DNA of 64,000 bases from Nitrospinales bacterium (GCA_965263085.1 OZ253582.1:1848385-1912384); one strand, 5' to 3'. Positions 1 to 59,143 are shown, counted from the first letter of the stretch. Translations and numbers: made by a program. Notes: generated by a model from the sequence alone, not told the origin.

Positions 1-46
1 ATTTTATAAGACCCATCCAACAAGGCTAATTATTTCCAGACAGTAA
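1..46 (+). CDS. 3-prime end of an ORF entering from upstream of the window (by position possibly dndC; only 15 codons visible)
   Basis: The frame is open from base 2 to TAA at 44-46. The TAA overlaps the next ATG (TAATG), which is operon-style coupling to dndD. Confidence 0.3.
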   Translation, partial: FYKTHPTRLIISRQ

Positions 47-2022
47 TGATAATTGACTCCATCGACATAGAAAATTTTGGGGTTTATTTAGGCAAGCAAA
101 CAGTTTTGTTAACACCGCCTTCCCAAAATAAACCGATAATCCTTTTTGGTGGCCAAAATGGAAGAGGTAAAACAACCCTCTTGAATGCCTTGCAACTTGG
201 TTTGTATGGAAAATTAGCCAGTTGTTCTAATAGAGGAAAACTTGGATACGAAGAGTATTTAAAGCGTTCAATCCATAGTTCGGCTGACCCAGCGCAGGGG
301 GCAAGCATAACTATAAGTTTTCGATACTTTACAAATGGAAGAGAAATAAAACATAAAATCATAAGGTCTTGGTTGTCTAACGGTAAAGGAACTAAAGAAG
401 GATTAGAGGTTTTTAAAAATGATAAGTTTGATCGCGTCCTTACAGATCAATGGGTAGAATTTTTTAGAGAATTTCTTCCTCCTAAACTGTCAAACTTATT
501 TTTCTTTGATGGAGAAAAAATAGAAAGTTTTGCGGATCTTGATAATGCCTCAAAATTATTATCTATAGGAATAAACTCACTACTGGGTGTTGATTTAATA
601 GAACAACTGTCCAAAGATTTGGTCGTTCTGGAAAGAAAAAAACAAACACCAAATTTAACCCCAACAGATAAAAAAGAAATAGAAGGGATTGAAAAAGAGA
701 TTAAACAAACCAACCAAAACATTGAATCTAAGAGAAATGAAATAGGAAAATTAAATAATGAGGTAACCCAAGTAAAGAACTCACTGGATAGCCTGCAAGA
801 GAAGTTTAGCCAAGAGGGTGGTGAAATCTACGAAAAAAGACATGAGCTGGAAGCAAGTAAAAATGAATTAAAAAAACAGATCGCTCAACTCGAAGTAGAG
901 TTGATTAGCGTTGCAAAAGGACCTGCGCCACTCTTTTTGTTGGGGAATCTTCTAGATTCAATATCATTGCAAGACAAAAAAGAATTAAGTGATACAAATA
1001 CTGCGGATTTAATAAATATTCTAGGCAAGCGAGATAAAGATATTATTGAACTTTGTAAAAAGGAAAAGGTGTCCCCTGCAATAATTACCAAATTGCAAAA
1101 AAAATTATGTGATGATATTGCGTCAAGAATTCCCAATGAAAGCTCCAAACCATATTTAGACCTAAATATGGATTCAAGGTTAAATTTAAATAACCTTAAT
1201 AATGTTGAATTACCGTCACTAGAAAAATCGATTGAGGCTACATTAAAAAAATATGATGAGGCAACTGAGCTTTTGAATATTAACAAGAAAAAATTAGGAA
1301 GTATTCCTAGTGACCAAGGGATAGCAGGGCTATTAGAAGAAATAAAAAAAATTAAAATAAAAGTAGAAGAAAATACTTTTAAAATAAAAAGAGCAGAAGA
1401 AGAGGCGAGTCGCTTAGACCGACAAAAAATTATTCTTGAAAAAGAATTAGAAAAAAAATATCTATTGTCTTTAGAAGAAAAATTTACTACCGAAGATAAT
1501 GAATTATTCCAAAAAAAATCTAAAACGGTAAGAGATACGTTGAATGTGTTTCATAAAGAGATATTAAAAAGACATATCGGTAAAATTCAAACCTTAATAC
1601 TGGATAGTTTTAATAAGCTGATAAGTAAAGATTCTTTAATCAAAGATTTTATTATTGATGTTAATGATTTTGGCATTACTTTGCAGGATTCAGGGGGAAG
1701 AACTATTTTACCAGAACGTCTTTCAGCTGGGGAAAGGCAGCTACTTGCGGTTTCAATGTTATGGGGATTAGCACGTGCATCAGGCCGAGCCCTTCCATCG
1801 GTCATTGATACACCCCTTGGAAGACTCGATTCTTCCCACCGCAAAAATATTGTTGAAAAATATTTTCCATTTTCGAGTCACCAAGTATTTTTATTGTCAA
1901 CAGACGAGGAAGTAGACCGAGAGCACTTTGAAAAATTAAAACCATGGATAGGCCATTCATATATATTAAATTTTGATGAATCAACAAATGCAACTAAAAT
2001 TGAAAAAGGATATTTTTGGTAA
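46..2022 (+). CDS. dndD: DNA phosphorothioation (sulfur modification) protein DndD, SMC/ABC-like ATPase
   Basis: 658 aa. It has Walker A GQNGRGKT, a long K/E-rich coiled-coil middle, an LSAGERQ signature and SVIDTPLGRLD Walker B. A DndE-like ORF overlaps its stop. Confidence 0.85.
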   Translation: MIIDSIDIENFGVYLGKQTVLLTPPSQNKPIILFGGQNGRGKTTLLNALQLGLYGKLASCSNRGKLGYEEYLKRSIHSSADPAQGASITISFRYFTNGREIKHKIIRSWLSNGKGTKEGLEVFKNDKFDRVLTDQWVEFFREFLPPKLSNLFFFDGEKIESFADLDNASKLLSIGINSLLGVDLIEQLSKDLVVLERKKQTPNLTPTDKKEIEGIEKEIKQTNQNIESKRNEIGKLNNEVTQVKNSLDSLQEKFSQEGGEIYEKRHELEASKNELKKQIAQLEVELISVAKGPAPLFLLGNLLDSISLQDKKELSDTNTADLINILGKRDKDIIELCKKEKVSPAIITKLQKKLCDDIASRIPNESSKPYLDLNMDSRLNLNNLNNVELPSLEKSIEATLKKYDEATELLNINKKKLGSIPSDQGIAGLLEEIKKIKIKVEENTFKIKRAEEEASRLDRQKIILEKELEKKYLLSLEEKFTTEDNELFQKKSKTVRDTLNVFHKEILKRHIGKIQTLILDSFNKLISKDSLIKDFIIDVNDFGITLQDSGGRTILPERLSAGERQLLAVSMLWGLARASGRALPSVIDTPLGRLDSSHRKNIVEKYFPFSSHQVFLLSTDEEVDREHFEKLKPWIGHSYILNFDESTNATKIEKGYFW

Positions 2023-2027
2023 TTGCG

Positions 2028-2396
2028 ATGATAGACCATGTACGATTATCACAGCAAGCTAAGGATCAGCTAGCGCAGTTAAAAAGAAAAACAAAACTTA
2101 CTCATTTTAATGAAATATGTCGGTGGGCATTTTGTCTTTCCTTAGCTGAGTCCTCTGCCCCATCAGTGAAGAACTTTAGAAATGATAACCCTCTTGAAAT
2201 GTCTTGGCGAGTGTTTGGAGGTAAATATCAGGATATTTACTTGGCATTACTCAAGCAAAGGTGTGTCAACGATGGCCTCGCTCTTGACTCAGAAACCTTA
2301 GCTGAACAACTTAAGCTCCACCTTCACCGAGGAATAGGATATTTAGCCGCAGATACCGAACTAAAAAATATATCGCACCTATTGAAAAAATATTGA
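2028..2396 (+). CDS. dndE: DNA phosphorothioation protein DndE
   Basis: The frame is open from 2016 (TTG, overlapping the dndD stop). The first ATG at 2028 gives 122 aa starting MIDHVRLSQQAKDQLAQLKRKT. Size, position and sequence match DndE as I remember it. Confidence 0.7.
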   Translation: MIDHVRLSQQAKDQLAQLKRKTKLTHFNEICRWAFCLSLAESSAPSVKNFRNDNPLEMSWRVFGGKYQDIYLALLKQRCVNDGLALDSETLAEQLKLHLHRGIGYLAADTELKNISHLLKKY

Positions 2397-2431
2397 CTGG
2401 TTCCAATTAGAAAAATTTATCTAGTTTGTGT

Positions 2432-2893
2432 TTAACGGACTAAATTGGTTATATCATCTAGGATGGATTGGTTTGAATTATCATTTTGCTCAAGCACAAG
2501 ATCTAATAATGATTCTCGCCCATCACCTGGCTTTTCATGGATCTTATTTTTAATTAATTCTAAGCCTCCGCAGGCATATTCTTCGAAGATTTTAATTTTT
2601 TCTTCCTCTCGTTTTTCTCCCATTATGTCTGCACTTTTTGTTGAGGCAATACCGATGTAGTTAAAAATGACGAAATCATAGTCACCTTTAAAAATATGAA
2701 CCCCAACTGGTTCAGATGACTTATCAAATGGAACCCTTTTGTTAGATTTAAATCCCAGACAAGCTGAAAAAACAAGAGCGTCTTTGTAAGTTAAAAATAT
2801 ATTTTTATTCTTGTCCTTATTTTGACAAAGCTCAAGAAGCATTTCTTCATATTCATCGGGACGTCTTACATCGTTAACCATAAAAACCCTCAT
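2432..2893 (-). CDS. Small dnd-linked protein of unknown function (resembles the family named dnd system-associated protein 4; assignment from memory)
   Basis: 153-aa ORF. Its start (ATG at 2893 or 2881) overlaps the stop (2874-2876) of the upstream ATPase gene. Confidence 0.6.
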   Translation of the reverse strand: MRVFMVNDVRRPDEYEEMLLELCQNKDKNKNIFLTYKDALVFSACLGFKSNKRVPFDKSSEPVGVHIFKGDYDFVIFNYIGIASTKSADIMGEKREEEKIKIFEEYACGGLELIKNKIHEKPGDGRESLLDLVLEQNDNSNQSILDDITNLVR

Positions 2894-4898
2894 TTATCAA
2901 AGTATATTCATAGCGGTCACTTTTTTTAACGCGTTCATTTGGTACATCTGGGCCTGGAGCATGGTAGACCAACGAAAACTCTTTGCCCATTCTCGGGCGA
3001 ATTTTATTTTCGATTTCACCGGACCAATGCGAATCAGACACCATGAGAACTACTTGTTCTGACATGCTAGGTATATATTCTGCAATTTTCTCTCTATATT
3101 CTGGGTCGAGAGGTCCATATGCTGAATCCATTACAATAGGGTATATTCCGCCCTTGAAGTAATAGTTTTTATCGCCTCGCTCTTTTGCCATCTGAACAAT
3201 GCTGGCAATAAAAGATAAGCTGGTGATTTGATTTTCGCCTGTAGACTTTTCATGTACCACCGTTTCGTGTTCTCCGACTTTTTTATAAATATCTAGAGTA
3301 TATTCATTGCTAATTTTAGCCCAATAATCTTTGCGGATAATTTTTTTAAATGTGTCATTCACTTTTCTAGATAATTTTTCGCGGACTTCACTGCCTAATG
3401 AGGTATACCATGACCCGATAAGGCCATATGTTTCTTCAGCAATAAAAATTCTACCTTGAGCTAATTTAACTTGCTCGTTTTGTGCGCTCAACTCTTCTCT
3501 TCGTTTTTTAAGGGTTGCGAGGTCTTTGTCTAATCCCTGTTTGGTTGCTTGTAGTGCTCCTTTTTCTAAAGTAGCACTGTCAATATCTTCATTAAGCTTC
3601 CCTCGTTTAGCTTCTAATCTCTGAACAGATTCTGAGTCAATCTTCCCAATTTTACTATTGATTTCATCAAGCTTACCGCTCATTGATTCAATTTTTTTCT
3701 CCATTTCTGTTCTTTTCAATTGGTCTGTCCGTAATCTATCGAATAGATCTTTTCGAGCTTGTTTTATAGGTAAAATTGCTCCAGAAGCGGTAATAAAAGA
3801 ACCCTCAATATCTTTGCCAGTAGTTGATTTTTTAAATTTAAGAACTTCATTAAAGGGTTGACTGCCTTCACTAAGTGCCCTTCCACAGATACATTGATTG
3901 GCTGCTAATAAATCATCTATAAATTGCTCTTTAACTTTAAACGGCAATTCTCCTTTTTTCCTTTTATCATCCAAAAAAGATTCACATGTATTAACCAATT
4001 CTTCAGTAAACGCTAAAAATCCAAAGCGGCTAATATAATCTCTTCGTTCTTTAATTAAAGAATCTTTGCTGGTAGAAGTAGCTGAAATTTCACCTTCTAA
4101 TTCGTTGCGTTTTGCTTGCAGCTCGGTTGAAGCCTTAGTGTCCGACAATTTTTTGTCAACAAGAGACAATTCCTCTCTAAATTGATTAATATTATTAGAC
4201 AAAAGCTTTAAATTTTTTTTACATTCATCTAATGAATCTTCCTTCTGGCTTTCATCTTCAGCCACTTGGCTTAAGTCACCCGTTGATAAATCTCTAAGTT
4301 CTTTTTTGAGAGTTTTAATTACAGGCTTTAAGTGTTCATATGCGCGATCGACAATCTGCAAACCCATTAAATTTTTAATAGCTATCTGTATATCGCTGCT
4401 TGAGTTTTTACGGGCTAGTTTTTCTATTCTTTCACCATTGAAGAAAAAATATGAGTGTAAGTTTTTCGGTAAAATTTGGTAAATATGAGTTTTGGGATTC
4501 TGAGATGTGATATGACCACCATTTGCATCAGTATGATTTAAAGTAAAATCCTCTGATTTGCTTTCATAATTTAGATTCGATTGTTTTATAAAAGTTTGGC
4601 TTCGCTTTGCAATATGTTTTTTATCATCATGCTCAAATATAATCTCAACGCTCATCTCCATTTGTTGGCCTTCCTTGGATTCATCAACAAGTCTTTCATT
4701 GAGAAGCTTCTCATTTTCACTATCAAAGTCTGTGATACCATAAAAACCCCATTTAAAACTATTGAGGATTGTTGTTTTGCCAGAGCCGTTTTCGCCATGT
4801 ATAACGGTTACATTTTGACCTGGATCGTTACTAAAATCTATTTTTTGAGTTCCGTAGAATTGTCGAAAGTTAGAAATTTTCAAAGAAATAAGTTTCAC
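2874..4898 (-). CDS. DndD-like SMC/ABC-type ATPase (second copy of the DndD architecture, outside the modification operon)
   Basis: 674 aa with a GTG start. It has Walker A GENGSGKT, a roughly 350-aa coiled-coil, an STGENQ signature and PIVMDSAYGPLD Walker B. This is the same layout as dndD at 46-2022. Confidence 0.8.
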   Translation of the reverse strand: MKLISLKISNFRQFYGTQKIDFSNDPGQNVTVIHGENGSGKTTILNSFKWGFYGITDFDSENEKLLNERLVDESKEGQQMEMSVEIIFEHDDKKHIAKRSQTFIKQSNLNYESKSEDFTLNHTDANGGHITSQNPKTHIYQILPKNLHSYFFFNGERIEKLARKNSSSDIQIAIKNLMGLQIVDRAYEHLKPVIKTLKKELRDLSTGDLSQVAEDESQKEDSLDECKKNLKLLSNNINQFREELSLVDKKLSDTKASTELQAKRNELEGEISATSTSKDSLIKERRDYISRFGFLAFTEELVNTCESFLDDKRKKGELPFKVKEQFIDDLLAANQCICGRALSEGSQPFNEVLKFKKSTTGKDIEGSFITASGAILPIKQARKDLFDRLRTDQLKRTEMEKKIESMSGKLDEINSKIGKIDSESVQRLEAKRGKLNEDIDSATLEKGALQATKQGLDKDLATLKKRREELSAQNEQVKLAQGRIFIAEETYGLIGSWYTSLGSEVREKLSRKVNDTFKKIIRKDYWAKISNEYTLDIYKKVGEHETVVHEKSTGENQITSLSFIASIVQMAKERGDKNYYFKGGIYPIVMDSAYGPLDPEYREKIAEYIPSMSEQVVLMVSDSHWSGEIENKIRPRMGKEFSLVYHAPGPDVPNERVKKSDRYEYTLINEGFYG

Positions 4899-5074
4899 GT
4901 CTTTATTTCCTCTCTAAATATATCTATTAATTTACCTATTATTTCTTGTTCTTTATTCCGGGGTATATCATTAAAGTGCTGATATTCTTTTTCAACTTCC
5001 AAAATTTTAGTAATAATACCTCTAACTTGGTCTGTTGTTGAAGCAATGACTTGACCTGGTTTTAAATCGTTCAT
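4895..5074 (-). CDS. 59-aa hypothetical protein (below the ORF-track length cutoff)
   Basis: ATG at 5074, TGA at 4895-4897. Hand translation: MNDLKPGQVIASTTDQVRGIITKILEVEKEYQHFNDIPRNKEQEIIGKLIDIFREEIKT. It starts 3 nt after the helicase-gene stop, and its TGA overlaps the GTG of the ATPase gene (GTGA). Confidence 0.5.
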   Translation of the reverse strand: MNDLKPGQVIASTTDQVRGIITKILEVEKEYQHFNDIPRNKEQEIIGKLIDIFREEIKT

Positions 5075-5077
5075 ATT

Positions 5078-7186
5078 TTAATAATCCAATAGATTCAATC
5101 TAGCCTTTATTGCTCGTAGGTTTTCTAAGACCTCACCTTTATTTATACAAATGTTCGCAAACTCATCTACTCTTTTTAATTCATTCTCCATTAACTTCCG
5201 TTCATAGCTAAAGTTTTGATTATTTGCTATGTCAGAGTTTGATTGTAATGGAGGTATCGCCAAAAAATCATAAATCTTTGCCTCTTTCTTACCCCGAGCT
5301 TGCCTCAGCACTCTTCCTCGACGCTGAATAAATTGTCTTGAGTTTGTTGAAGACGCTAAGATATAAGCTGTTTCAGTCCTAGGAACATCGACTCCTTCAT
5401 CTAAGCATTTTATGGCGACTAATACCTGAATTTTTCCTAAGCTAAAATCACTTAACAATTGCTGGCGAATATCATTTGTCTCCTGAGCAGTTATTTTATT
5501 TGCCTTTATTCCTAATTCAACGCCAACCATTTTTAGTATAGCTTCAACCTGTCTTTCACCTTCGTATATCATATCACCACAGTAAATCAAATTAAAATTA
5601 GAATCCAAATCCTTCTGCAGTAGTTCTTTTAGTATCGGGACTTTATTTTCAGCATTTGCAATCAATCGAGCTCTCTTAATCAGCAAGGTTTTTAAAGGTT
5701 TAGAGGTCAAATCATTATTATCATTATTTGAAGTACTTAATCGTGAAATAGAAATAGAAAGACTTCTATATTCATCCATCTCTTCTTCAGTGAGCGGAAC
5801 TTGGATCACGTGATAGTAATATGGACAAAGTGTGCCATCTGCAATGGCATCAGATATTTCATATTTAACAACTGTTTTGCTAAAATAATTTTTTAAGATC
5901 ATGGTACCTTCTTCATCATAAAACCTGTCAGGAGTTGCAGACAATCCAATCCGCCAAATAGCCTTATCAGGTAATAGCTCCTTGATCTCATTTCCACCTA
6001 AGTTATGCATTTCGTCAGCAATAAAAAGAAAATTCCCATTAAAGCTATCTAAAATATTTTGAAATGGTTCTCGGATAAATGTAGCGTTGGTAACAATAAA
6101 AAAAGAAATTGTAGATTGATTTAATTTTAGAGAATGTATACTATTCTTAGCTTTATCAAGCCAATTAGTGTAAGAGTCGTAGCATATTTGCGGATTGAAT
6201 CCAAATCCTTCAGCTTCTGTGTTCCATTGGTCAGCTAAATGTTTATAAGGCACAGCAACAGCTACCATTAAGTTACTATTTTTCGGATAAATAGCACCAT
6301 CTAAAATTCTAACAATCGAACTTAAAGCCGTGACCGTTTTACCCGAACCTGTTGCCATATGAAAAATTCCACGTCCATTATTCTTAAACCACTCATTAAT
6401 AGCCTTTTCTTGATGATCTCGTAACTTATTCTTTTGGTTTAAAAATTTATCTGGTATGCGTGGTGAGTTACCACTATCAGGAGCTTTTATTACTAGCCGA
6501 TAAGGTCGTGTTGTGGATTCAGTGATTTTAATAAATTTTTGGACAGCCTTATCTGTGGGTGTATATATCTCAAGATTTGGATCATTCTTGGACCACATTT
6601 TTTCAAAATCAGATTCTTTCCGATCAACTCTTTCACTTTCGCCAGGTTCCCAACTTCTATAAATATCTAAGACTTCCCAATTGGTATTAGCTGCGCTTGT
6701 TAAGTTGTATGAACCAGTAAATGCGATTTTATTGCCATCAAGATCATTTAGAATTCCAATTTTTGCATGAAAAATTCCACACAAAGCATTTTTTGGTACT
6801 GCTAGTTTAAATTCCAATATCTTATCGTTAATTAACCAACCAATAGTTGTTCTCGTTTCTAACTCGAGGGAAATCTGGAGTTCTTCGATGGATCGAATGG
6901 AAATATTTTCAATAATTCTTTTTTTATCCTCTAAATTTTTAGATTCTGATAGTAGCACCCAATCTTCTTCGTTTAATTGAGGGCTAATTATCCACCTAGA
7001 GTGCCCACCATTTTTAGCAAACATAGCAATTCCTTTGGCAGCGTCCCTTATCCACTTTGAGGAAAAATAACCGACCGCTATATCATAAGAAATAGATGTT
7101 GCTAAAACCGGGTCAAAAAATTCTTTTATAGGATCATTGGATGAGGTGGTTAAGGAAATAGGAATATTTAACTCAAGAAATGACAT
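5078..7186 (-). CDS. PLD-family (HKD) nuclease domain fused to an SF2 DExH helicase; resembles the family named DNA phosphorothioation system restriction enzyme
   Basis: 702 aa. HKD motif FHAKIGILNDLDGNKIAFTGSYNLT; helicase motif I MATGSGKT, II DEMH, III LSATP, VI QRRGRVLRQ. Confidence 0.8.
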   Translation of the reverse strand: MSFLELNIPISLTTSSNDPIKEFFDPVLATSISYDIAVGYFSSKWIRDAAKGIAMFAKNGGHSRWIISPQLNEEDWVLLSESKNLEDKKRIIENISIRSIEELQISLELETRTTIGWLINDKILEFKLAVPKNALCGIFHAKIGILNDLDGNKIAFTGSYNLTSAANTNWEVLDIYRSWEPGESERVDRKESDFEKMWSKNDPNLEIYTPTDKAVQKFIKITESTTRPYRLVIKAPDSGNSPRIPDKFLNQKNKLRDHQEKAINEWFKNNGRGIFHMATGSGKTVTALSSIVRILDGAIYPKNSNLMVAVAVPYKHLADQWNTEAEGFGFNPQICYDSYTNWLDKAKNSIHSLKLNQSTISFFIVTNATFIREPFQNILDSFNGNFLFIADEMHNLGGNEIKELLPDKAIWRIGLSATPDRFYDEEGTMILKNYFSKTVVKYEISDAIADGTLCPYYYHVIQVPLTEEEMDEYRSLSISISRLSTSNNDNNDLTSKPLKTLLIKRARLIANAENKVPILKELLQKDLDSNFNLIYCGDMIYEGERQVEAILKMVGVELGIKANKITAQETNDIRQQLLSDFSLGKIQVLVAIKCLDEGVDVPRTETAYILASSTNSRQFIQRRGRVLRQARGKKEAKIYDFLAIPPLQSNSDIANNQNFSYERKLMENELKRVDEFANICINKGEVLENLRAIKARLNLLDY

Positions 7187-7187
7187 A

Positions 7188-9587
7188 TTAAAAATTAAAT
7201 TCCCTTAGAATTTTATTAAGTTCGCTATTTTTGGAAACGATAGAATACGATTTATCATTCACCTGAAGGTTAAACCTAGGATCCATCTTGAAATATTTTT
7301 CAAATAAATTTCTATCAGGTTTTCTTGTCAAGGTATTTTTAATATTTTCTATGATAGCCTTAATGGCTTTTACGCTAGTTCCTTCTCCGAGAGCATTTTT
7401 AATAACTTTGTCATACAGGCGAAGGTTATTAGAAATTGTATCATTTTGGCAAATACCATTATTTAATTTAATAGCTGTTAATGAACTTAATATAGATCTT
7501 ATTACACAGGGATTTAGATTGAAAGAACTTACGTTATTAACTTTTTCAATGATCAACTGAAAGCTTTGAGGCCCACTAAGTAGAATTATTTGTATCTGCA
7601 AAACAAAGTCTTCATAGTCGTTTTCTGAAGCAAATACACCACAAAGTAAATCGTATTTGTCATTATCCACCTCAATTATGTTTTTGCTTTTTAGTATTGT
7701 TCTTTTTATTGTGTCATTAGCTAAAAACCTGGTTTTTAAAAATTCATTATGGATTTTCTTCAAGGTGGCAGGTCTGTTTCTTACAAGAAAGTCGATTATT
7801 TCTTCCTCTATAAATTTAAAAGATTTTTCCTTAAATGTTTTTAAGCCAACCATAAATCCTGGCCTAGTTAAAAATCGTTTATCATCTTGAACAATGCCAT
7901 GTAGCATGTGGCGGTTAAATTCCTGATCCCACTCTTTTGGATAATTGTTAAATAAATCTTCAAAAATAACTTTATTGCTCATAAATTTATTTTTATCCAT
8001 TAAGTAGTGATAAGTCTCATCTCTTATTTTTGCAATATTAGATTCCGAAAATTTTAAATTTTCATATGTATTATAGGTTCCAATATCAACAACTAATGTT
8101 TCTTCTAATCTTCCTAGTGTCGTGCTAACTAAGCGCTGAGAAATACTGCTATTAAATAATTTATTAAATATTCTCGTTGCTTCGGAAATATGCAAAGGTC
8201 TTTTTTCTTTTCTAAACATAAAAATATACTTTGCAACTAAAGGAATATTCCCACTTTCGAGCAGACCTTTTTGAAACCGGACTCCATATTTATTTTTTAG
8301 ATAGTTGGTTACAAAAAAAGGTGGGATATCTTGAGTTCGAGTGAGAATGTTTTTTAATGAAATAGGCCAATCCGAAGAAAAAAATTCTTTTCGTATTTTC
8401 GTTTTCCAGGTTTGTTTGGTTTCGTGTTCTGGTTCAATAAAAATATAACTATTGTCGACAGCAACATTTTCGAGATTTTTATTAATTGACTCTTTGTGAA
8501 GGTAAATAAAAATACGAAAATCCTTAACACCACATGAAAAACTTGTTGCTATATCTTTGATTTCAAGACCCCCACCTTTTTCTTTTATTTTGCATATTAT
8601 TTGGTTGTAAATAGTTATCGATTCATCAAGGTATAGTCTTTTATATTTTGATACTATTTTATGATCAATAATTTGCCTTGCTCGTTCACGTGTTATGCCA
8701 TAGCCACGTCCTATTTCTTCTAATGTTAAATTATGTGTTGTGCGCTCTACTAAAATCTTAAAATCTCTTTCTTTGAGAATCTCGGATAATTCATTTACAA
8801 TTTTATTAATATTTGGTTTCTCTGGAGCATCATCGACTTTTAATTCTTTTTTTGAGAATAGATCCTTTTTCTTCTTTACGCTATCAATAAGCTCTTGGAA
8901 TTCGAGAGCTGTTTTTCTTCCAAGATTTGTAACTTTTAATAATTTGTTTATTGCCCTTGGTCCGTCCTCTAAATAATCTCTTACTGTCTTATATGGAAAC
9001 TTCCCATTCGCGCAAATATGTTCTAAGCGAACACTAATATTTTTATTTTTTAGAAGTTCAATTATTGATAAATTCCCTAAACTATCATCTAAAGATGAAA
9101 TGCTTTCGGGACACGGTTCGTTTTTTGTCATTGCTTCGTCAATGTTCCTCTGGAATTCGAGAGCTGTTTTTCTTCCAAGATTTGTAACTTTTAATAATTT
9201 GTTTATTGCCCTTGGTCCGTCCTCTAAATAATCTCTTACTGTCTTATATGGAAACTTCCCATTCGCGCAAATATGTTCTAAGCGAACGCTAATATTTTTA
9301 TTTTTTAGAAATTCAATTATTGATAAATTCTCTAGACCACCATCAAAATTTGATTTTTCTTTTATGCGAGCTTCATATGAGGATGAAATCTGTAGTGTAG
9401 GCTTATTTTCCGGATGTGAATCTTTTTCAGTAATTGCCTCTGCATCTTGGCATGTCAGAGCAATCTTGATATTCTTTGTAGGTTTTCCATCAGAAGTGGC
9501 GGTTGAATGTCCATCCGAATGCGAAACAATTGTGCCGGAGTTTCCTCGGTATTTTTTATCTATTGTAAGATCTGAAAGTAAAGACAC
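7188..9587 (-). CDS. Large multi-HTH DNA-binding protein: two RNAP alpha-CTD-like helix-hairpin-helix modules, a sigma-70 region-4-like HTH and a ~480-aa C-terminal region of unknown function
   Basis: 799 aa. The module NLSIIE(F/L)LKNKNISVRLEHICANGKFPYKTVRDYLEDGPRAINKLLKVTNLGRKTALEFQ occurs twice (residues ~86-146 and ~171-231). LTLEEIGRGYGITRERARQIIDHK lies at ~287-310. The stop is 1 nt before the ATG of the next gene. Confidence 0.7.
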   Translation of the reverse strand: MSLLSDLTIDKKYRGNSGTIVSHSDGHSTATSDGKPTKNIKIALTCQDAEAITEKDSHPENKPTLQISSSYEARIKEKSNFDGGLENLSIIEFLKNKNISVRLEHICANGKFPYKTVRDYLEDGPRAINKLLKVTNLGRKTALEFQRNIDEAMTKNEPCPESISSLDDSLGNLSIIELLKNKNISVRLEHICANGKFPYKTVRDYLEDGPRAINKLLKVTNLGRKTALEFQELIDSVKKKKDLFSKKELKVDDAPEKPNINKIVNELSEILKERDFKILVERTTHNLTLEEIGRGYGITRERARQIIDHKIVSKYKRLYLDESITIYNQIICKIKEKGGGLEIKDIATSFSCGVKDFRIFIYLHKESINKNLENVAVDNSYIFIEPEHETKQTWKTKIRKEFFSSDWPISLKNILTRTQDIPPFFVTNYLKNKYGVRFQKGLLESGNIPLVAKYIFMFRKEKRPLHISEATRIFNKLFNSSISQRLVSTTLGRLEETLVVDIGTYNTYENLKFSESNIAKIRDETYHYLMDKNKFMSNKVIFEDLFNNYPKEWDQEFNRHMLHGIVQDDKRFLTRPGFMVGLKTFKEKSFKFIEEEIIDFLVRNRPATLKKIHNEFLKTRFLANDTIKRTILKSKNIIEVDNDKYDLLCGVFASENDYEDFVLQIQIILLSGPQSFQLIIEKVNNVSSFNLNPCVIRSILSSLTAIKLNNGICQNDTISNNLRLYDKVIKNALGEGTSVKAIKAIIENIKNTLTRKPDRNLFEKYFKMDPRFNLQVNDKSYSIVSKNSELNKILREFNF
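8896..9334. repeat. In-frame tandem duplication inside the 799-aa gene, period 255 bp
   Basis: The 184-bp cores at 8896-9079 and 9151-9334 differ at only 3 positions (9033/9288, 9056/9311, 9076/9331). The ~71-bp linker between them is not duplicated. Confidence 0.95.
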
Positions 9588-9667
9588 TATTTGCTCCAGA
9601 AAAAAATAGTAGATTAATAGCGATGGCCTTATAATAAGTCTTTTGAAAAAAATTGGTATGTTTTTTT

Positions 9668-10176
9668 ATGGAAATTCTTTGCCCCTTCTGCAAGCCTTAT
9701 AAATTTAAACTAATTCTGGAAGGCAATAATTTTCTAATTATTGAAGATTCCCATCCGATTTCCCTAGGACATCTTTTAATAATTACCAAAAGGCATGTAA
9801 AATCTTTTTTTTTAACTACGGACGAAGAAAAGGTCGCTTTATTCAATGGAATAGAGCAAGCAAAAGCTTTAATTGAAAAGGGATCACAAGCCCCAATGGA
9901 TATAATATTGGAATTAATGATGGTGAAGCGGCCGGCCAAACTATTAATCATCTACACATACATGTGATTCCTAGGTATAAAGGTGATTCTCGAGACCCAC
10001 GCGGAGAAATTTGGTGGGTCTTCCCTGATAAAGCCTCATATTGGCAAAATATTGAGGAGACTTTAGATGAGTTGCCAGATGCGTTTGGTAAAGACCTCTT
10101 CGACCAGAAATGCAATGTGGTTTTTCAACATGTTTATGAATCTTATTATGGGCAAGGGCAGAGTGTATATAGTTAG
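9668..10176 (+). pseudogene. HIT-family (histidine triad) hydrolase gene interrupted by a frameshift
   Basis: The N-terminal part (MEILCPFCKP...ALIEKGSQAP) is in one frame. The HIT core (NGYNIGINDGEAAGQTINHLHIHVIPRYKGD) is in the -1 frame, which only opens after a TGA at 9874-9876. The shift must lie in 9877-9897, most simply in the C4 run at 9891-9894. Confidence 0.7.
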
Positions 10177-10242
10177 CTCTATAGATGTAAACAAATCTAT
10201 GAAAATAGATGAAACGAAAATTATTTAGAGAAACCTTACCAA

Positions 10243-11712
10243 ATGCCCTGTGAATTCTTCATAAAGAATGCCCAACGTACACGTTGCCAATTTAATATTG
10301 GAGAAGGGTCATTGATTTCTCTATCTGATGGGAGGAGGGCTTGTCAATTTCATGCTCCACTACAAGATACCAATGGAAATGGAACAGAAAAGGCAAAATG
10401 GAATGAGGGCGGGAACAAGAATTTTAATGGTGAAGTTGGTAATCAAATCCGGAACGCTGGTAGAAAGAAAGTAGACCTATCTGGTGTTGTTTTTCCAGTG
10501 GAAATTAAGTTTTCCGATTGCGAATGTAGGCCAGATTTTGAGCAAGCCACATTTCATAAAGCGGTGGTTTTCCGAGGTGTCTCTTTTCCTGAAGAAAGTT
10601 CATTCAAGAAAACGAATTTTTTGGATGCGGTAGATTTTCAATATTCAAAGTTTGCTTCTACAACAAGTTTTGTCTCAGCTAAATTTAGCGGGGCATCCAA
10701 TTTCTCAAATACCGTATTTACAAAAGATGCGGATTTCACTGGATTGAAATTTAAAAATAAAACCTCATTTACTGAGACAACCTTCGAAGATAAAGCTACT
10801 TTTGAAAAGACGGTATTTGCGAAAGAAGCATCATTTGACCGCACTAAATTTATTGGTGATGCTGATTTTGTCGGGTCACAATTCAACTCCGAAGTTGACT
10901 TTGCAAATACAATATTCACAAAGAATGCAAATTTCTTCAATACGGTATTTAAAGGGTCTTTAAAGTTTACAGAGGTTCAATTTGAGGGACCTGCGAATTT
11001 TAACGTAGATGATGAGGGTCTTCCTTCATCTTTTCCAGAATTAGATTTTTCAAACTCAACATTCAAAGACTCCGTTTCATTCATCAATAGAAAATTTTTA
11101 ACAACCTCCAATTTTGATGAATGCGTGTTTTTTGTCGCACCTGAATTTCAAGGTTGCACACTCCATCAAGACACCAAGTTTCCTCAGGGCAGAAACTTCA
11201 AAGATCATAGCCCTGACGCCGCTCCCGCCTACAGAACTCTGAAGTTGGACATGGAAAATAGCCGTGCTCGTCAGGAAGAGGCTATGTTTTATGCTTTAGA
11301 GCAAAAATGTCAAGCGGCTGATTCCAAAACGGACTGCGTGGTGAAACGTTTTTCTCGCCTTTACGAACTAACCTCTAATTATGGGCAGAGTCTTGGGCGG
11401 CCTGTTGCTTCGATGTCAGGAGTTTCCGTGTCATTTTTCCTAATATATCTATTAATGGCTACAGGATTTTCTTGGAAAACTTTAGCTTCCATAGAATTTT
11501 CTTGGAAAACTTTAGGCCCCACTATTGGGTTCACTATCGAGCAGTCTGTAAGTCCATTTAAGGTTTGGAGGCTACCTGTTTCACCTGAATGGTTATCTAG
11601 TGGTGTTGATTTGGTTGTACTTAAAATTATTGCTACCCTACACTCGTCACTCTTCTTAGTTTTTTTTGGTCTATTCATTTTAGTTCTGCGTTGGAGATTT
11701 AAAAGAGGGTGA
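10243..11712 (+). CDS. Pentapeptide-repeat protein with a Cys-containing N-terminus and two C-terminal transmembrane segments
   Basis: 489 aa. It carries ~200 aa of F-rich pentads (ATFHKAVVFRGVSFPEESSFKKTNFLDAVDF...). The C-terminal hydrophobic stretches are VSVSFFLIYLLMATGF and SSLFLVFFGLFILVL. Confidence 0.8.
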   Translation: MPCEFFIKNAQRTRCQFNIGEGSLISLSDGRRACQFHAPLQDTNGNGTEKAKWNEGGNKNFNGEVGNQIRNAGRKKVDLSGVVFPVEIKFSDCECRPDFEQATFHKAVVFRGVSFPEESSFKKTNFLDAVDFQYSKFASTTSFVSAKFSGASNFSNTVFTKDADFTGLKFKNKTSFTETTFEDKATFEKTVFAKEASFDRTKFIGDADFVGSQFNSEVDFANTIFTKNANFFNTVFKGSLKFTEVQFEGPANFNVDDEGLPSSFPELDFSNSTFKDSVSFINRKFLTTSNFDECVFFVAPEFQGCTLHQDTKFPQGRNFKDHSPDAAPAYRTLKLDMENSRARQEEAMFYALEQKCQAADSKTDCVVKRFSRLYELTSNYGQSLGRPVASMSGVSVSFFLIYLLMATGFSWKTLASIEFSWKTLGPTIGFTIEQSVSPFKVWRLPVSPEWLSSGVDLVVLKIIATLHSSLFLVFFGLFILVLRWRFKRG

Positions 11713-11756: not shown

Positions 11757-11831
11757 AGGCTGTTAGCTCAACGGGCAGAGCACTGACTCTTAATCAGTAG
11801 GTCGAAGGTTCGATTTCTTCACGGCTTACCA
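11757..11831 (+). tRNA. tRNA-Lys(CUU)-like gene with non-canonical features (possibly degenerate)
   Basis: Hand-folded cloverleaf: acceptor AGGCTGT/ACGGCTT, D arm GCTC-AACGGGCA-GAGC, anticodon arm ACTGA-CTCTTAA-TCAGT, T arm GAAGG-TTCGATT-TCTTC, encoded CCA. Oddities are A1-T72, two G-T pairs in the acceptor stem, G53-T61 and one nucleotide missing at the D/anticodon junction. Confidence 0.55.
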
Positions 11832-12083: not shown

Positions 12084-13964
12084 ATGGCAAGTCTAATTCC
12101 CTCTCTTAATAGTTGCGTTAAACGAATGCAATCGGGCGAGAAGCGTTTCGCTTGGCGCATAGAGAGCCATTTGGAGGACGACTACCTCTGCTGGTACGAT
12201 TTGCCTGTCGGCAAAAGACAGCGATATTTCGACTTCATTATCCTGCATCCGGCACGTGGTCTGTTGTTGCTGGAGGTGAAGGACTGGAAGCTGGATACCA
12301 TCCAGAAGATAGATAAGGCGACTGCAACTATCATCATCCCGCAGGGCGTCAAAACCGAAGTCAACCCTCTGGAACAGGCACGTCAATGCACCAATCAACT
12401 GATACAACAGCTGGAGAAGGACCCTCAATTGGTCCACCAAACAGGACGTTATAAGGGCCACGTGGTTTTTCCATACGGTTATGGGGTGGTATTGAGCAAT
12501 ATTACCCGTAGGCAGTTTGAATCTACTGACTTGGGAGAAGTGTTACCTGAGCACCAAGTTATCTGTAAGGATGAAATGGTTGAAAGCGTGGAGCCAGAGA
12601 TCTTTCAAGAGCGCTTATGGAACATGTTCAACGTCCAGTTTTCGCATCCTCTTACCCTACCGCAGATTGATCGTATCCGTTGGCACATGTTTCCCGAAGT
12701 TAGAATCAATACAGACGATCAGGGCAATCTTTTTTCAGAGGAGCCAGAAGAGGAGGATATAGAAGAGCTGCTACCTGACATTATAAAGGTCATGGATAGG
12801 CAGCAGGAAATGCTGGCACGCAGTCTTGGGGAAGGACACCGGGTCATCCATGGGGTGGCCGGTTCTGGCAAAACCTTGATCCTGGGTTATCGCTGTCTCT
12901 ACCTCGCCAAGATGCTGAACAAACCAATTCTTGTCCTCTGCTACAACATAACACTGGCCGCTAGGTTGCGCGAACTGATTGCTGGGCGAGGTCTTGGTGA
13001 TAAGGTCAGCGTCTATCACTTCCATGACTGGTGCGGTGAACAGCTACGCACCTACCATATTGATCGACCACAACAGCGGGGCGACAAGTATTTTGACCGG
13101 CTTGTTGAGACGGTCATTGCTGCAGCGGAGAAGGGTGAGATACCAAAATGTCAGTATGGCGCAGTAATGATCGACGAAGGCCATGACTTTAAGCCTGAAT
13201 GGCTGGAGCTTGTGGTAAGCATGGTTGATTCCAAGACCAATTCCCTACTGTTGCTTTATGACGATGCACAGTCGATCTACAGCAAGAAGAACCAGCTCGA
13301 CTTCAGCTTATCTAGTGTCGGAGTTCAGGCAAAGGGCCGGACAACTATACTAAAATTGAATTATCGGAATACCAAAGAAATTCTTGGTTTCGCTTACCAG
13401 TTTGTCCGCAGATACCTTAATCTAGATGCTAAGGGCGAGGATCATGTGCCGTTGGTTGAGCCTGAGGCGGCGGCGGGGCGTCATGGACCTGCACCCGTAG
13501 TAAAGACTTTTAACTCTTATGAAGAGGAAGTAGGCTATATCGCTCGTACCTTCAAGCGAATGCATGACGAACAGGGGATTCCCTGGTCCGATATGTGCGT
13601 AATATATTGGAATAACTGGATGGGAGAAAAACTGCATACCCAATTAACGTCCATAGGTGTTCCCTGTCAATGGCTCAGGGATTCAAAGGAGAAAAAGCTG
13701 TTTAAGTCCTCGGCTGACAGCGTGAAGTTAATGACAATGCACAGCAGTAAGGGTTTAGAATTCCCCATTGTTGCGGTATCAGGGATAGGGAATATGCCTG
13801 CTGACGGACAGGACCCAGTCTCAGCGGCCAAAGTGCTGTATGTTGCGATGACACGTTCCACAGAAAAACTGTTGCTTACCAGTCATAGAGAGACTGAGTT
13901 TCTTTCCCAATTGAAGCAGGTAGATCATGACCTTTCCACTATAAATTGGACAGTCAAAAAGTAG
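12084..13964 (+). CDS. NERD nuclease-like domain fused to a UvrD/PcrA-type SF1 helicase
   Basis: 626 aa. NERD-like FDFIILHPARGLLLLEVKDWK; Walker A GVAGSGKT; Walker B MIDEGHDF; C-terminal TMHSSKGLEFPIV and LYVAMTRS. Confidence 0.8.
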   Translation: MASLIPSLNSCVKRMQSGEKRFAWRIESHLEDDYLCWYDLPVGKRQRYFDFIILHPARGLLLLEVKDWKLDTIQKIDKATATIIIPQGVKTEVNPLEQARQCTNQLIQQLEKDPQLVHQTGRYKGHVVFPYGYGVVLSNITRRQFESTDLGEVLPEHQVICKDEMVESVEPEIFQERLWNMFNVQFSHPLTLPQIDRIRWHMFPEVRINTDDQGNLFSEEPEEEDIEELLPDIIKVMDRQQEMLARSLGEGHRVIHGVAGSGKTLILGYRCLYLAKMLNKPILVLCYNITLAARLRELIAGRGLGDKVSVYHFHDWCGEQLRTYHIDRPQQRGDKYFDRLVETVIAAAEKGEIPKCQYGAVMIDEGHDFKPEWLELVVSMVDSKTNSLLLLYDDAQSIYSKKNQLDFSLSSVGVQAKGRTTILKLNYRNTKEILGFAYQFVRRYLNLDAKGEDHVPLVEPEAAAGRHGPAPVVKTFNSYEEEVGYIARTFKRMHDEQGIPWSDMCVIYWNNWMGEKLHTQLTSIGVPCQWLRDSKEKKLFKSSADSVKLMTMHSSKGLEFPIVAVSGIGNMPADGQDPVSAAKVLYVAMTRSTEKLLLTSHRETEFLSQLKQVDHDLSTINWTVKK

Positions 13965-59063: not shown

Positions 59064-59143
59064 ACTCCAATTGTACCACCCGCCAAGCTTAGGAAGCAAA
59101 CCGCCGACTGTAGAGGTGGGGGATTATTAACCAAACTTACTTA

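Follow-up and report, generated by a model that had tools for sequence, protein, structure and literature searches.

The best-described relative of the locus analysed here is PbeABCD of Haloterrigena jeotgali A29 (Xiong et al. 2019), an operon downstream of dndCDEA whose four genes encode a PLD, ResIII and Helicase_C protein, a 66-aa protein, an AAA_23 ATPase and a 152-aa protein. In this archaeal type system phosphorothioate (PT) made by the dnd genes marks host DNA and PbeABCD keeps viral DNA without the mark from replicating, for which each of the four pbe genes is needed; no DNA cleavage was seen, and a catalytic DndA mutant abolished defence, so that PT modification itself is needed (Xiong et al. 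2019). PT-dependent antiviral protection has been shown only for this H. jeotgali system, expressed in Natrinema (Xiong et al. 2019). The same system appears in work of the Aravind laboratory (2020/2024) as one centred on a CxC ABC ATPase, and the 2024 reappraisal re-annotated its components as an HKD-SF2 protein, a small protein, a CxC ABC protein and a DndE cognate, predicted nuclease activity from the HKD motif, and argued that CxC systems in general act independently of phosphorothioation; cleavage by PbeA is disputed.

We analysed a window of 64,000 nucleotides from a Nitrospinales bacterium that contains a five-gene cassette (genes A to E, 2432–9587), which an earlier sequence-only reading had put forward as an uncharacterised PT-linked restriction or defence system. 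As judged from sequence comparison, the cassette is very probably a PbeABCD-type operon beside dnd genes that carries an extra first gene, A, encoding a putative accessory DNA-reading subunit. The features of the locus are as follows.

46..2022, plus strand: dndD, DNA sulfur-modification ABC ATPase (TIGR03185, 594.9 bits against a cut-off of 245.85)
2016..2396, plus strand: dndE (Pfam DndE, 137 bits; TIGR03184, 131 bits)
2432..2893, alternative start 2881, minus strand: gene E, pbeD, 153 aa (TIGR04062, DNA phosphorothioation-associated protein 4)
2874..4898, minus strand: gene D, pbeC, 674 aa, GTG start (PADLOC PbeC)
4895..5074, minus strand: gene C, pbeB, 59 aa (position between pbeA and pbeC; phmmer homologues)
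5078..7186, minus strand: gene B, pbeA, 702 aa (PADLOC PbeA; Pfam PLDc_2, ResIII and Helicase_C)
7188..9587, minus strand: gene A, 799 aa, putative accessory non-enzymatic protein (Pfam Sigma70_r4, AlphaFold2, Foldseek, synteny)
8863–9098 and 9118–9353, minus strand: 236-nt tandem direct repeat in gene A, 90% identical, 255-nt period (repeat search)
9588..9667, no strand: divergent intergenic region between gene A and the HIT gene, 80 bp, presumed operon promoter region (from position only)
9668..10176, plus strand: HIT-family gene, divergent from gene A, frameshifted (three-frame translation)
11757..11831, plus strand: tRNA-Lys(CTT), right-hand edge of the low-GC dnd/pbe island (ARAGORN, Rfam, GC step)

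All five minus-strand ORFs, convergent with dndD and dndE, are present where they had been placed, and their junctions are as tight as claimed, with a 1-nt gap between A and B, a 3-nt gap between B and C, a 4-nt GTGA overlap between C and D, and an overlap between D and E that measures 20 nt with the ATG at 2893 and 8 nt with that at 2881. This spacing supports the prediction that the five genes form one operon, in which the pbe genes follow the expected A-B-C-D order and gene A begins at a GTG with GGAG 8 nt upstream. Because homologues keep the same five-gene order in 18 genomic loci and two plasmids (and in two metagenomic contigs, as matched by gene size and domains), the ORFs are real genes and not chance open frames. 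The AT-rich island is likewise borne out, with a GC content of 0.30–0.37 over positions 1–11,000 against 0.43–0.52 in the remaining window, and one figure needs correcting: the convergent dndE and pbeD stops are 35 nt apart (2396 versus 2432) rather than 36, and on the P0003 contig the two genes overlap. No dndA, dndB or dndC is visible in the window, where dndD already starts at base 46; the remaining genes of the dnd cluster, if present, would lie to its left. A consensus scan of 9588–9667 gave no promoter-like site above chance, and the repeat search and promoter scan revealed no palindromic operator upstream of gene A. The neighbouring HIT gene is split into an N-terminal half (9668–9967) and a C-terminal half with HLHIHVIPR in another frame (9877–10176), and intact 129-aa HIT genes occupy the same position beside the two closest gene A homologues.

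Genes B, C, D and E are, on sequence grounds, PbeA, PbeB, PbeC and PbeD. The sequence-only reading took the gene contents of PbeABCD to differ and the cassette to be a candidate uncharacterised system; that central claim fails for four of the five genes, which map onto a named and characterised system because B and D match the PADLOC models end to end (PbeA, 758 bits, residues 5–686, 682-position model; PbeC, 743 bits, residues 1–646, 651-position model) and the type PbeABCD content is that of B-C-D-E. Its domain calls were right (PLDc_2, ResIII and Helicase_C in B; AAA_23/SMC_N with a DndD-like architecture in D), as was the assignment of B and E to dnd-associated TIGRFAM families (TIGR04095, 553 bits, just below the cut-off of 600; TIGR04062, 112.3 bits, cut-off 74.25), and the analysis also favours its views of the cassette as a phosphorothioation-linked defence cassette, of B as a predicted nuclease/translocase and of D and E as a putative DndD/DndE-like DNA-handling pair. 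Gene B carries the HKD motif HxK...GSYN at residues 140–161 (H140-x-K142, coded at 6704–6769), which is present in 95 of 95 sampled PbeA sequences, together with the SF2 helicase motifs GSGKT and DEMH. Gene D, which encodes a coiled-coil ABC ATPase, has the Walker A motif GENGSGKT at residue 35 and a CxC zinc hook, C336-I-C338 (coded at 3885–3893); CxC occurs in 77 of 77 sampled PbeC sequences against 0 of 13 DndD sequences, and it is absent from the product of the adjacent dndD. With phmmer, 14 of 18 loci have a gene C homologue in the corresponding place, and the window protein is 27% identical to its orthologues; in 17 of 18 genomic loci a gene E homologue comes after pbeC. The products of E and C are close in size to type PbeD and PbeB (153 versus 152 aa and 59 versus 66 aa), and an hhalign comparison of PbeD and DndE profiles (28 versus 15 sequences) gave a weak alignment over 107 collinear columns (E 1.8e-4, probability 48%). 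Genes B–E thus have the order, sizes and domains of the type operon and fit the scheme of the Aravind laboratory, and none of the five proteins has a PADLOC match to DndF/G/H or SspE/F/G/H. Both operons adjoin dnd modification genes, but the window operon is bacterial and convergent to dndDE whereas the type operon is archaeal and lies downstream of its dnd genes, and the window operon alone has the extra gene, translationally coupled to pbeA. The cassette is therefore not uncharacterised as regards B–E, which are already known as PbeABCD; gene A and the five-gene arrangement have no description in the literature searched, and we found no mention of gene A in the published lists of Pbe components covered by that search.

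The product of gene A, rightly called a DNA binder with several HTH modules, comprises a disordered N-terminus (residues 1–81), two alpha-CTD-like repeats (coded at 9123–9338 and 8868–9086), a sigma region 4 with a long helix (8580–8810), about six tandem winged helices (7443–8570) and a helical C-terminus (7191–7430). Its AlphaFold2 model (pLDDT 84, pTM 0.62) matches the winged-helix arrays of SelB and UFL1 and sigma-A region 4 in Foldseek, and this confident model contains only DNA- or protein-binding folds and no enzymatic domain. The Pfam Sigma70_r4 hit reaches 32 bits (cut-off 24.1), and in alignment the −35 recognition helix of region 4.2, TRERxRQI, is the same as in region 4 of Taq sigma-A; of the 36 columns conserved at 90% or more in the family, whose mean column identity is 19%, 9 fall in this helix. 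RpoD and SigA chains are matched by the family profile at E ~1e-19, and the sigma4 of gene A is closest to primary sigma factors. Region 2 is missing from gene A, in which only Sigma70_r4 was detected, and from the Pfam table of 60 family members, whereas the true sigma factors that sit beside some Pbe loci show r1.1, r2 and r4; gene A is therefore not a sigma factor, as database names would have it. Lacking sigma regions 2 and 3 and the alpha N-terminal domain, it cannot bind core polymerase as either sigma or alpha.

The alpha-CTD-like assignment rests on the family: PF03118 is found in 18 of 60 members (best E 1e-40) and the family repeat HMM matches residues 257–307 of E. coli RpoA (E 8.5e-10), while a single repeat from the window, compared with the PDB by sequence, gave no alpha-CTD match. 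From the DNA-binding '265 determinant' of RNA polymerase alpha (R265, N268, G296, K298, S299) the repeats keep R, G and K and replace S with T; the N268 equivalent is N in the family consensus and H in the window copy, and the R265 equivalent is invariant. The two repeats, which are encoded by the 236-nt direct repeat, are 91% identical to each other compared with 43–72% to those of orthologues, which indicates concerted evolution. The conserved residues and modelled folds suggest that gene A binds DNA.

Association with pbe genes is complete among close members of the family, where the gene adjoins pbeA in all 22 other contexts (18 genomic, 2 plasmid, 2 metagenomic) and directly precedes pbeA-B-C-D at every one of the 18 genomic loci and on both plasmids; one of the two metagenomic contigs ends inside pbeC. 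Of 14 junctions measured, 13 have the gene A stop within −4 to +2 nt of the pbeA start. Among 59 independent metagenomic Pbe loci, 10 have a more distantly related gene with sigma4 (some with alpha-CTD repeats as well) directly beside pbeA, and ~83% of the sampled loci have no such gene. The type system functions without gene A (Xiong et al. 2019), which makes it dispensable for core activity. Gene A is also the fastest-evolving of the five, at 23% identity against 40–47% for PbeA, PbeC and PbeD; no relatives were found in the phage collection, and PADLOC offers no model for it beyond a 12.5-bit MzaA match. Its product is a conserved companion protein that is apparently undescribed.

One likeness outside Pbe is MzaA of the Mza anti-phage system (MzaABCDE), which shares the alpha-CTD-like and sigma-70 region 4 module: residues 178–306 of gene A match MzaA profile positions 571–693, and 55 of 60 family members also match MzaA. 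Each protein is a non-enzymatic accessory that some, not all, systems of its kind possess, and each belongs to a defence operon of several genes. The module nevertheless sits near the C-terminus of MzaA and near the N-terminus of gene A, the other ~500 aa of gene A, winged-helix array included, have no match to the MzaA model, and the partner genes of the two systems are entirely different. We reject the identification of gene A as MzaA, given a partial match of 33.5 bits to the equivalog NF041931 (cut-off 800), confined to those profile positions, and neighbours that are pbe rather than mzaBCDE. In BREX, PglW combines an alpha-CTD-like helical domain with three winged helices (wHTH) and BrxL has a sigma-HTH-like domain; these have been interpreted as DNA-scanning or recognition modules of modification-based defence, with the sensory parts evolving faster, and provide a precedent for gene A as a putative DNA reader. 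The BREX modules form part of enzymes, a kinase or a Lon-like ATPase, whereas gene A is a stand-alone protein, and no sequence homology was detected beyond the domain level. The triple winged-helix readers of the DndG/SspB/FokI type in PT and restriction systems, tandem arrays through which a PT-linked restriction module recognises DNA, resemble the array of about six winged helices with alpha-CTD and sigma4 heads in gene A by analogy only, and neither the top 50 Foldseek PDB matches nor PADLOC returned DndG, SspB or FokI for gene A.

The proposed mechanism has the PbeC-PbeD pair looping DNA and scanning its modification state, PbeA acting as an ATP-driven translocase/nuclease effector and PbeB serving as a modulator. 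Gene A would be a co-translated accessory subunit without enzyme activity, supplying DNA-reading heads (two alpha-CTD-like minor-groove modules, one sigma region 4 and about six winged helices) that probably guide or license the Pbe core on particular, promoter-like DNA.

That the cassette is an uncharacterised PT-dependent restriction system separate from PbeABCD, as the sequence-only reading proposed, is scarcely credible: the five-gene arrangement is new to the literature searched and gene A is nearly invisible to PADLOC, but B–E pair off in turn with PbeA, PbeB, PbeC and PbeD, B and D by model score and domains, E by TIGR04062 and all four by size and order, and the PADLOC matches and type gene content refute a separate identity for B–E. 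It is improbable, though with more to recommend it, that the operon works without reliance on phosphorothioation, either stand-alone or by suicide, with PbeB keeping the HKD nuclease in check until infection. The location beside dndDE would then reflect clustering in an island rather than dependence, and in its favour only 42% of PbeAC pairs lay within 10 kb of dndCD in a published survey (Xiong et al. 2019), while dndD/E were seen within 10 kb at roughly half of the 18 genomic loci with gene A and at only 10 of 80 metagenomic PbeA loci (6-kb flanks); the 2024 reappraisal also notes frequent independence from Dnd and proposes cleavage of self DNA. The requirement of the type system for PT itself argues against this, as do the dnd genes immediately adjacent to the operon in the window, on the P0003 contig and on both plasmids.

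Gene A is most likely a DNA-reading accessory subunit, and two other roles have to be weighed. It might regulate transcription of the operon, binding its own promoter through the sigma4 and alpha-CTD-like heads without being part of the Pbe machine; we consider this unlikely but conceivable, since gene A has DNA-binding folds only, comes first in the operon beside a divergent intergenic region, and has no counterpart in the functional type system or at most Pbe loci. Upstream regulators are, besides, common in defence operons. Family members of 700–1100 aa with about nine nucleic-acid-binding modules are, however, far above the size of a typical regulator, the stop/start contact with pbeA points to stoichiometric co-translation and not to a separately controlled regulator, the invariance of the −35-reading helix within so divergent a family would be unexpected if each protein recognised its own operator, and the upstream palindrome and promoter signals do not exceed chance. 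Alternatively, gene A could be a decoy of the promoter-recognition head of RNA polymerase that switches on PbeA when engaged by phage factors, a role that seems decidedly improbable; the triggers would include region 4-binding anti-sigma proteins and enzymes with alpha-CTD R265 as their target for modification. With a pair of alpha-CTD-like modules and a single sigma4, gene A reproduces the holoenzyme stoichiometry of the upstream-promoter-reading parts, the sigma4 is closest to primary sigma factors, the R265 equivalent is invariant, gene A evolves fastest with repeats changing in concert, and the same module recurs in MzaA and other large proteins. Against this, the case is purely inferential: plain DNA binding explains the same conserved residues equally well, no phage partner is known, the phage collection yielded no relative of gene A, and the activator-contact patch that sigma70 carries after this recognition helix shows no conservation in the alignment to Taq SigA.

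A broader, speculative idea, which we regard as doubtful, is that gene A and its relatives constitute an unrecognised class of defence accessory copying the upstream-promoter-reading head of RNA polymerase, either to aim Pbe or as a decoy. Members would share two alpha-CTDs and a sigma region 4 with frozen −35-reading residues, fused in gene A to a winged-helix array, and the class might extend to the alpha-CTD-sigma4 module of MzaA and to several other large proteins. If so, the mimic could steer the HKD-helicase/CxC-ABC machine towards sites resembling promoters on invading DNA that lacks the modification, which would explain a block of replication without bulk degradation; or it could be a decoy detecting phage factors that hijack sigma4 or alpha-CTD.

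The alpha-CTD-sigma4 module occurs in two or more defence systems, Pbe and Mza among them, and the names 'sigma factor' and 'RNA polymerase primary sigma factor' given to gene A relatives in databases are misleading for proteins without region 2. PbeABCD blocks viral replication, apparently without degrading DNA, and on this and on PT reading the sole experimental paper and the later computational reappraisal disagree. The sigma4 helix of gene A predicts a concrete target, −35-like DNA, and a Pbe sub-lineage with a dedicated, co-translated subunit predicted to read DNA would offer a tractable handle on Pbe.

The five minus-strand ORFs A-E occupy exactly the positions assigned to them in the sequence-only reading. 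The dnd genes visible within the 64-kb window are dndD and dndE, which converge on the cassette; dndA, dndB and dndC are not in the window. The features of the block are as follows:

46-2022, converging on the cassette: dndD
2016-2396, converging on the cassette: dndE
2432-2893, minus strand: gene E (pbeD)
2874-4898, minus strand: gene D (pbeC)
4895-5074, minus strand: gene C (pbeB)
5078-7186, minus strand: gene B (pbeA)
7188-9587, minus strand: gene A
11757-11831, plus strand: tRNA-Lys(CTT), at the island end and at the step from island to chromosomal GC

Genes A and B are separated by 1 nt and genes B and C by 3 nt, C and D share a GTGA overlap, D and E overlap by 8 or 20 nt, and the stop codons of dndE and gene E lie 35 nt apart. 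The whole dnd/pbe block sits within a low-GC island (GC 0.30-0.37 vs about 0.45 for the chromosome) on the 5' side of tRNA-Lys, and promoter and terminator scans performed no better than on shuffled sequence.

To establish the identity of genes B-E we compared them with defence-system and protein-family models. The PADLOC models for PbeA and PbeC matched B and D end to end (758 and 743 bits, respectively). PADLOC searches at E<=10 returned nothing for PbeB or PbeD. Gene B scored 553 bits against NCBIfam TIGR04095 ("DNA phosphorothioation system restriction enzyme"), slightly below the cut-off of 600, and gene E scored 112 bits against TIGR04062 ("DNA phosphorothioation-associated protein 4"; cut-off 74). 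In the type system, PbeA combines PLD (pfam13091), ResIII (pfam04851) and Helicase_C (pfam00271) domains, PbeB has 66 aa, PbeC is an AAA_23 (pfam13476) ATPase and PbeD has 152 aa; the four genes are co-transcribed, and each is needed for the approximately 10^4-fold protection against virus SNJ1 (Xiong et al. 2019). B and D carry the Pfam domains of type PbeA and PbeC, and C and E, at 59 and 153 aa, are close in size to type PbeB and PbeD. A 2024 reappraisal relabels the four products: PbeA as an HKD endoDNase-SF2 helicase, PbeB as a small protein that evolves rapidly, PbeC as a CxC-type ABC ATPase and PbeD as a cognate of DndE. Profile comparison by hhalign aligned PbeD with DndE collinearly but weakly (E 1.8e-4, probability 48%). 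The CxC motif of the window PbeC is C336-I-C338 and the adjacent DndD has none; across all sequences gathered, CxC fell within the middle third in 77/77 PbeC and 0/13 DndD proteins. CxC systems were reportedly first described by Krishnan and colleagues in 2020. The window PbeA shows H140-x-K142...GSYN, GSGKT and DEMH, the HKD motif was present in all 95 PbeA sequences gathered, and the sequence shows no loss of any catalytic or structural motif in the Pbe core. Since models, domains, sizes and motifs all fit Pbe, the earlier statement that PbeABCD differs in gene content was wrong, and the proposal of a system not yet named does not hold for four of the five genes. Thus, the cassette is the known PbeABCD system in a five-gene variant with A.

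Gene A is the component without such a counterpart. Its only Pfam match is Sigma70_r4 (residues 271-307), and NCBIfam MzaA gave a weak partial match confined to profile positions 571-693 (33.5 bits vs a cut-off of 800). A word-indexed search found two relatives only (60% and 44% identity), whereas a full HMMER scan yielded 262 representative clusters, with E<1e-30 for 82. Sigma70_r4 occurs in 60/60 aligned family members and a recognisable RNA_pol_A_CTD in 18 (best E 1e-40). Part of the protein is duplicated almost perfectly, and at the DNA level this duplication corresponds to a 236-nt direct repeat (two copies at 8863-9098 and 9118-9353, 90% identical). An AlphaFold2 model built on the 60-member alignment (mean pLDDT 84, pTM 0.62, pLDDT >90 over most of residues 260-770) predicted the following arrangement:

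Residues 1-81: disordered N-terminus
Residues 84-155 and 168-240: two helical alpha-CTD-like modules
Residues 260-336: sigma region 4, continuing as a long helix
Residues 340-715: about six winged-helix units
C-terminus: helical

A Foldseek search of the model against the PDB recovered tandem winged-helix arrays (the SelB C-terminus, 1LVA, E 2e-4; UFL1; RPC62) together with sigma-A region 4, and no enzyme fold. Sigma region 2 is absent from the Pfam families matched by the 60 aligned members, and we therefore ruled out a sigma factor.

The modules shared with RNA polymerase retain most of their characteristic residues. The family repeat HMM matches genuine E. coli RpoA residues 257-307 at E 8.5e-10; a single repeat of A searched by sequence against the PDB gave no alpha-CTD match. 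In the repeat, the R265, G296 and K298 positions are retained, R102 and R187 of A being the R265 equivalents; S299 is replaced by T, and the N268 position is N in the family consensus and H in the window copy. In the sigma4 helix, A has TLEEIG..YGITRERARQI where the Taq sigma-A region 4 construct has TLEEVG..FGVTRERIRQI, and T299, R300, E301, R302, R304 and Q305 of A are invariant or nearly so in a family with a mean column identity of 19%. In sigma70 and alpha-CTD, the corresponding residues are established as those that contact the -35 and UP elements.

We then asked where A-family genes reside. A scan of a genome collection with A as a single-protein query found no relative, nor did a search of a phage collection. 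With a query pattern from an 11-member subset (the 60-member alignment being too diverse) and one genome per species, the scan returned 18 loci in Rhodobacterales, Sphingorhabdus, Geothermobacter, Haliea, Nitrosomonas, Flavobacteria and Verrucomicrobia. The gene after A is pbeA in 18/18 loci, followed by pbeC in 18/18, pbeD in 17/18 and a recognisable pbeB in 14/18, and the interval from the A stop to the pbeA start is -4 to +2 nt in 13 of the 14 loci measured. Two Rhodobacterales plasmids (L100 and L101) have the same A-pbeABCD order beside dndBCDE and a desulfurase, and PGAP labels their A a "sigma factor-like helix-turn-helix DNA-binding protein". Among 80 metagenomic pbeA loci sampled independently, with a bias towards PbeA similar to that of the window, 59 had enough upstream sequence; in 10 of these a large (492-1098 aa) sigma4-bearing ORF abuts pbeA, some with two strong alpha-CTD repeats and one with an HNH domain. 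Elsewhere, scanned ORFs at the position of A encode a DndA-type desulfurase or GmrSD-type nucleases, and further loci are empty there. ORFs of about 381 aa abutting pbeA were considered as methylases and rejected, the one scanned with Pfam being a class-V aminotransferase (DndA-type desulfurase).

Several loci depart from this arrangement. At L046 (405-3701) the A-like protein 5' of pbeA has HNH and His-Me finger matches besides sigma4; at L067 (70-4328) the gene order is permuted to pbeC-pbeD-pbeA; and at L017 (10034-16758), a Nitrosomonas MAG, A-pbeABCD lies in many short ORF fragments, through decay of the copy or through poor assembly. On the two plasmids, A-pbeABCD is followed by a small hypothetical gene and "DNA phosphorothioation-associated DGQHR protein 1", which has DpdB/DndB-like PADLOC matches (L100 16499-18273, L101 16041-17836); this dnd-linked pair is absent from the window. 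Ten loci (L056, L068, L070, L071, L088-L090, L093, L094 and L097), several from human-gut metagenomes, carry a sigma4-matching ORF of 232-397 aa directly 3' of pbeD, at about 10.85-12.1 kb. A second A-like partner was rejected here: the two ORFs scanned with Pfam (L056 and L089) have regions 2 and 4, one also region 1.1, and are complete sigma-70-type factors, so the post-pbeD sigma factor is probably a lineage-specific neighbour; it is nevertheless curious that sigma-related genes turn up repeatedly next to Pbe loci.

By gene size and domain content, the two close metagenomic relatives show a divergent HIT gene followed by A, pbeA and pbeB; the longer contig runs on through pbeC, pbeD and convergent dndE and dndD, and the shorter stops inside pbeC. 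In the window the HIT-family hydrolase gene (9668-10176, plus strand), divergent from A, is frameshifted: its N-terminal half ends at 9967 and the HLHIHVIPR half is open in another frame (9877-10176). The HIT genes beside the two closest homologues are intact (129 aa), and thus this partner is conserved in the sub-lineage and broken in the window, unless by sequencing error. Between the HIT gene and the tRNA, the island holds a 489-aa pentapeptide-repeat protein (10243-11712, plus strand), where the close metagenomic relative P0003 has a 481-aa Methyltransf_23 protein. Directly right of tRNA-Lys lies a NERD nuclease and UvrD-type helicase protein (12084-13964, plus strand), then ordinary urease and urea-transport operons. 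The NERD-UvrD gene may be the second defence gene of a hotspot here, given a 598-bit match to the PADLOC candidate defence model C3a187 (NERD+UvrD). A full-length match to Rfam 5_ureB_sRNA (RF02514; 16204-16489, minus strand; 94 bits vs a gathering score of 40) runs antisense within the urease structural genes; conservation of the urease coding sequence, and not a genuine antisense sRNA, may account for it. Farther right, an 845-aa ResIII/DEAD protein (59144-61681, minus strand) scores 723 bits against the PADLOC Type III restriction enzyme model, with neighbouring minus-strand ORFs at 57756-59099 and 62726-63976.

Neither a sigma nor an alpha-CTD component of Pbe/CxC systems is listed in the 2019 or the 2024 paper, sigma and RpoA are likewise missing from one supplement of the latter, and PADLOC lacks a model for A. 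MzaA is described no further than as "a sigma factor" that a few Mza-like systems contain. A is real and conserved and, as far as we checked, undescribed. Other large proteins (683-1380 aa) recovered by the deep search (P0120, P0124, P0140, P0142, P0143, P0148, P0149, P0111 and P0114) have only the alpha-CTD-sigma4 module in common with A, and the module thus appears mobile; they score just 60-77 bits against MzaA, none being a true MzaA, and one has a weak SNF2/DrmD-like region. Relative to its orthologues the window copy of A is 23% identical, compared with 27% for PbeB, 40% for PbeC, 43% for PbeD and 47% for PbeA, making A the fastest-evolving of the five components; within A, conservation is highest in the WH3-4 block (residues 450-582). 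Within a single protein, the alpha-CTD-like repeats share 91% identity (window copy) or 85% (P0003), compared with 43-72% between orthologues, and judged by these identities the two repeats evolve in concert.

In the archaeal type system, antiviral activity requires PT modification itself, and viral DNA replication is blocked with no cleavage detected. Following published proposals, PbeC and PbeD would scan DNA, PbeB would modulate, and PbeA would act as an ATP-driven translocase and, because its HKD motif is universally conserved, probably as a nuclease. A might simply regulate its operon, an explanation we consider unlikely, and it is more doubtful still that A mimics the RNA polymerase head as a decoy for sensing phage takeover factors. 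Translational coupling to pbeA, the size and module count of the protein, and DNA-contact residues that stay fixed while the protein as a whole diverges fast argue instead for a subunit role. BREX offers a precedent, where PglW has an alpha-CTD-like domain with three wHTH and BrxL a sigma-HTH. We tentatively favour, at somewhat short of an even chance, a role for A as a co-translated, non-catalytic DNA-reading subunit that would direct or license the Pbe core on promoter-like DNA.
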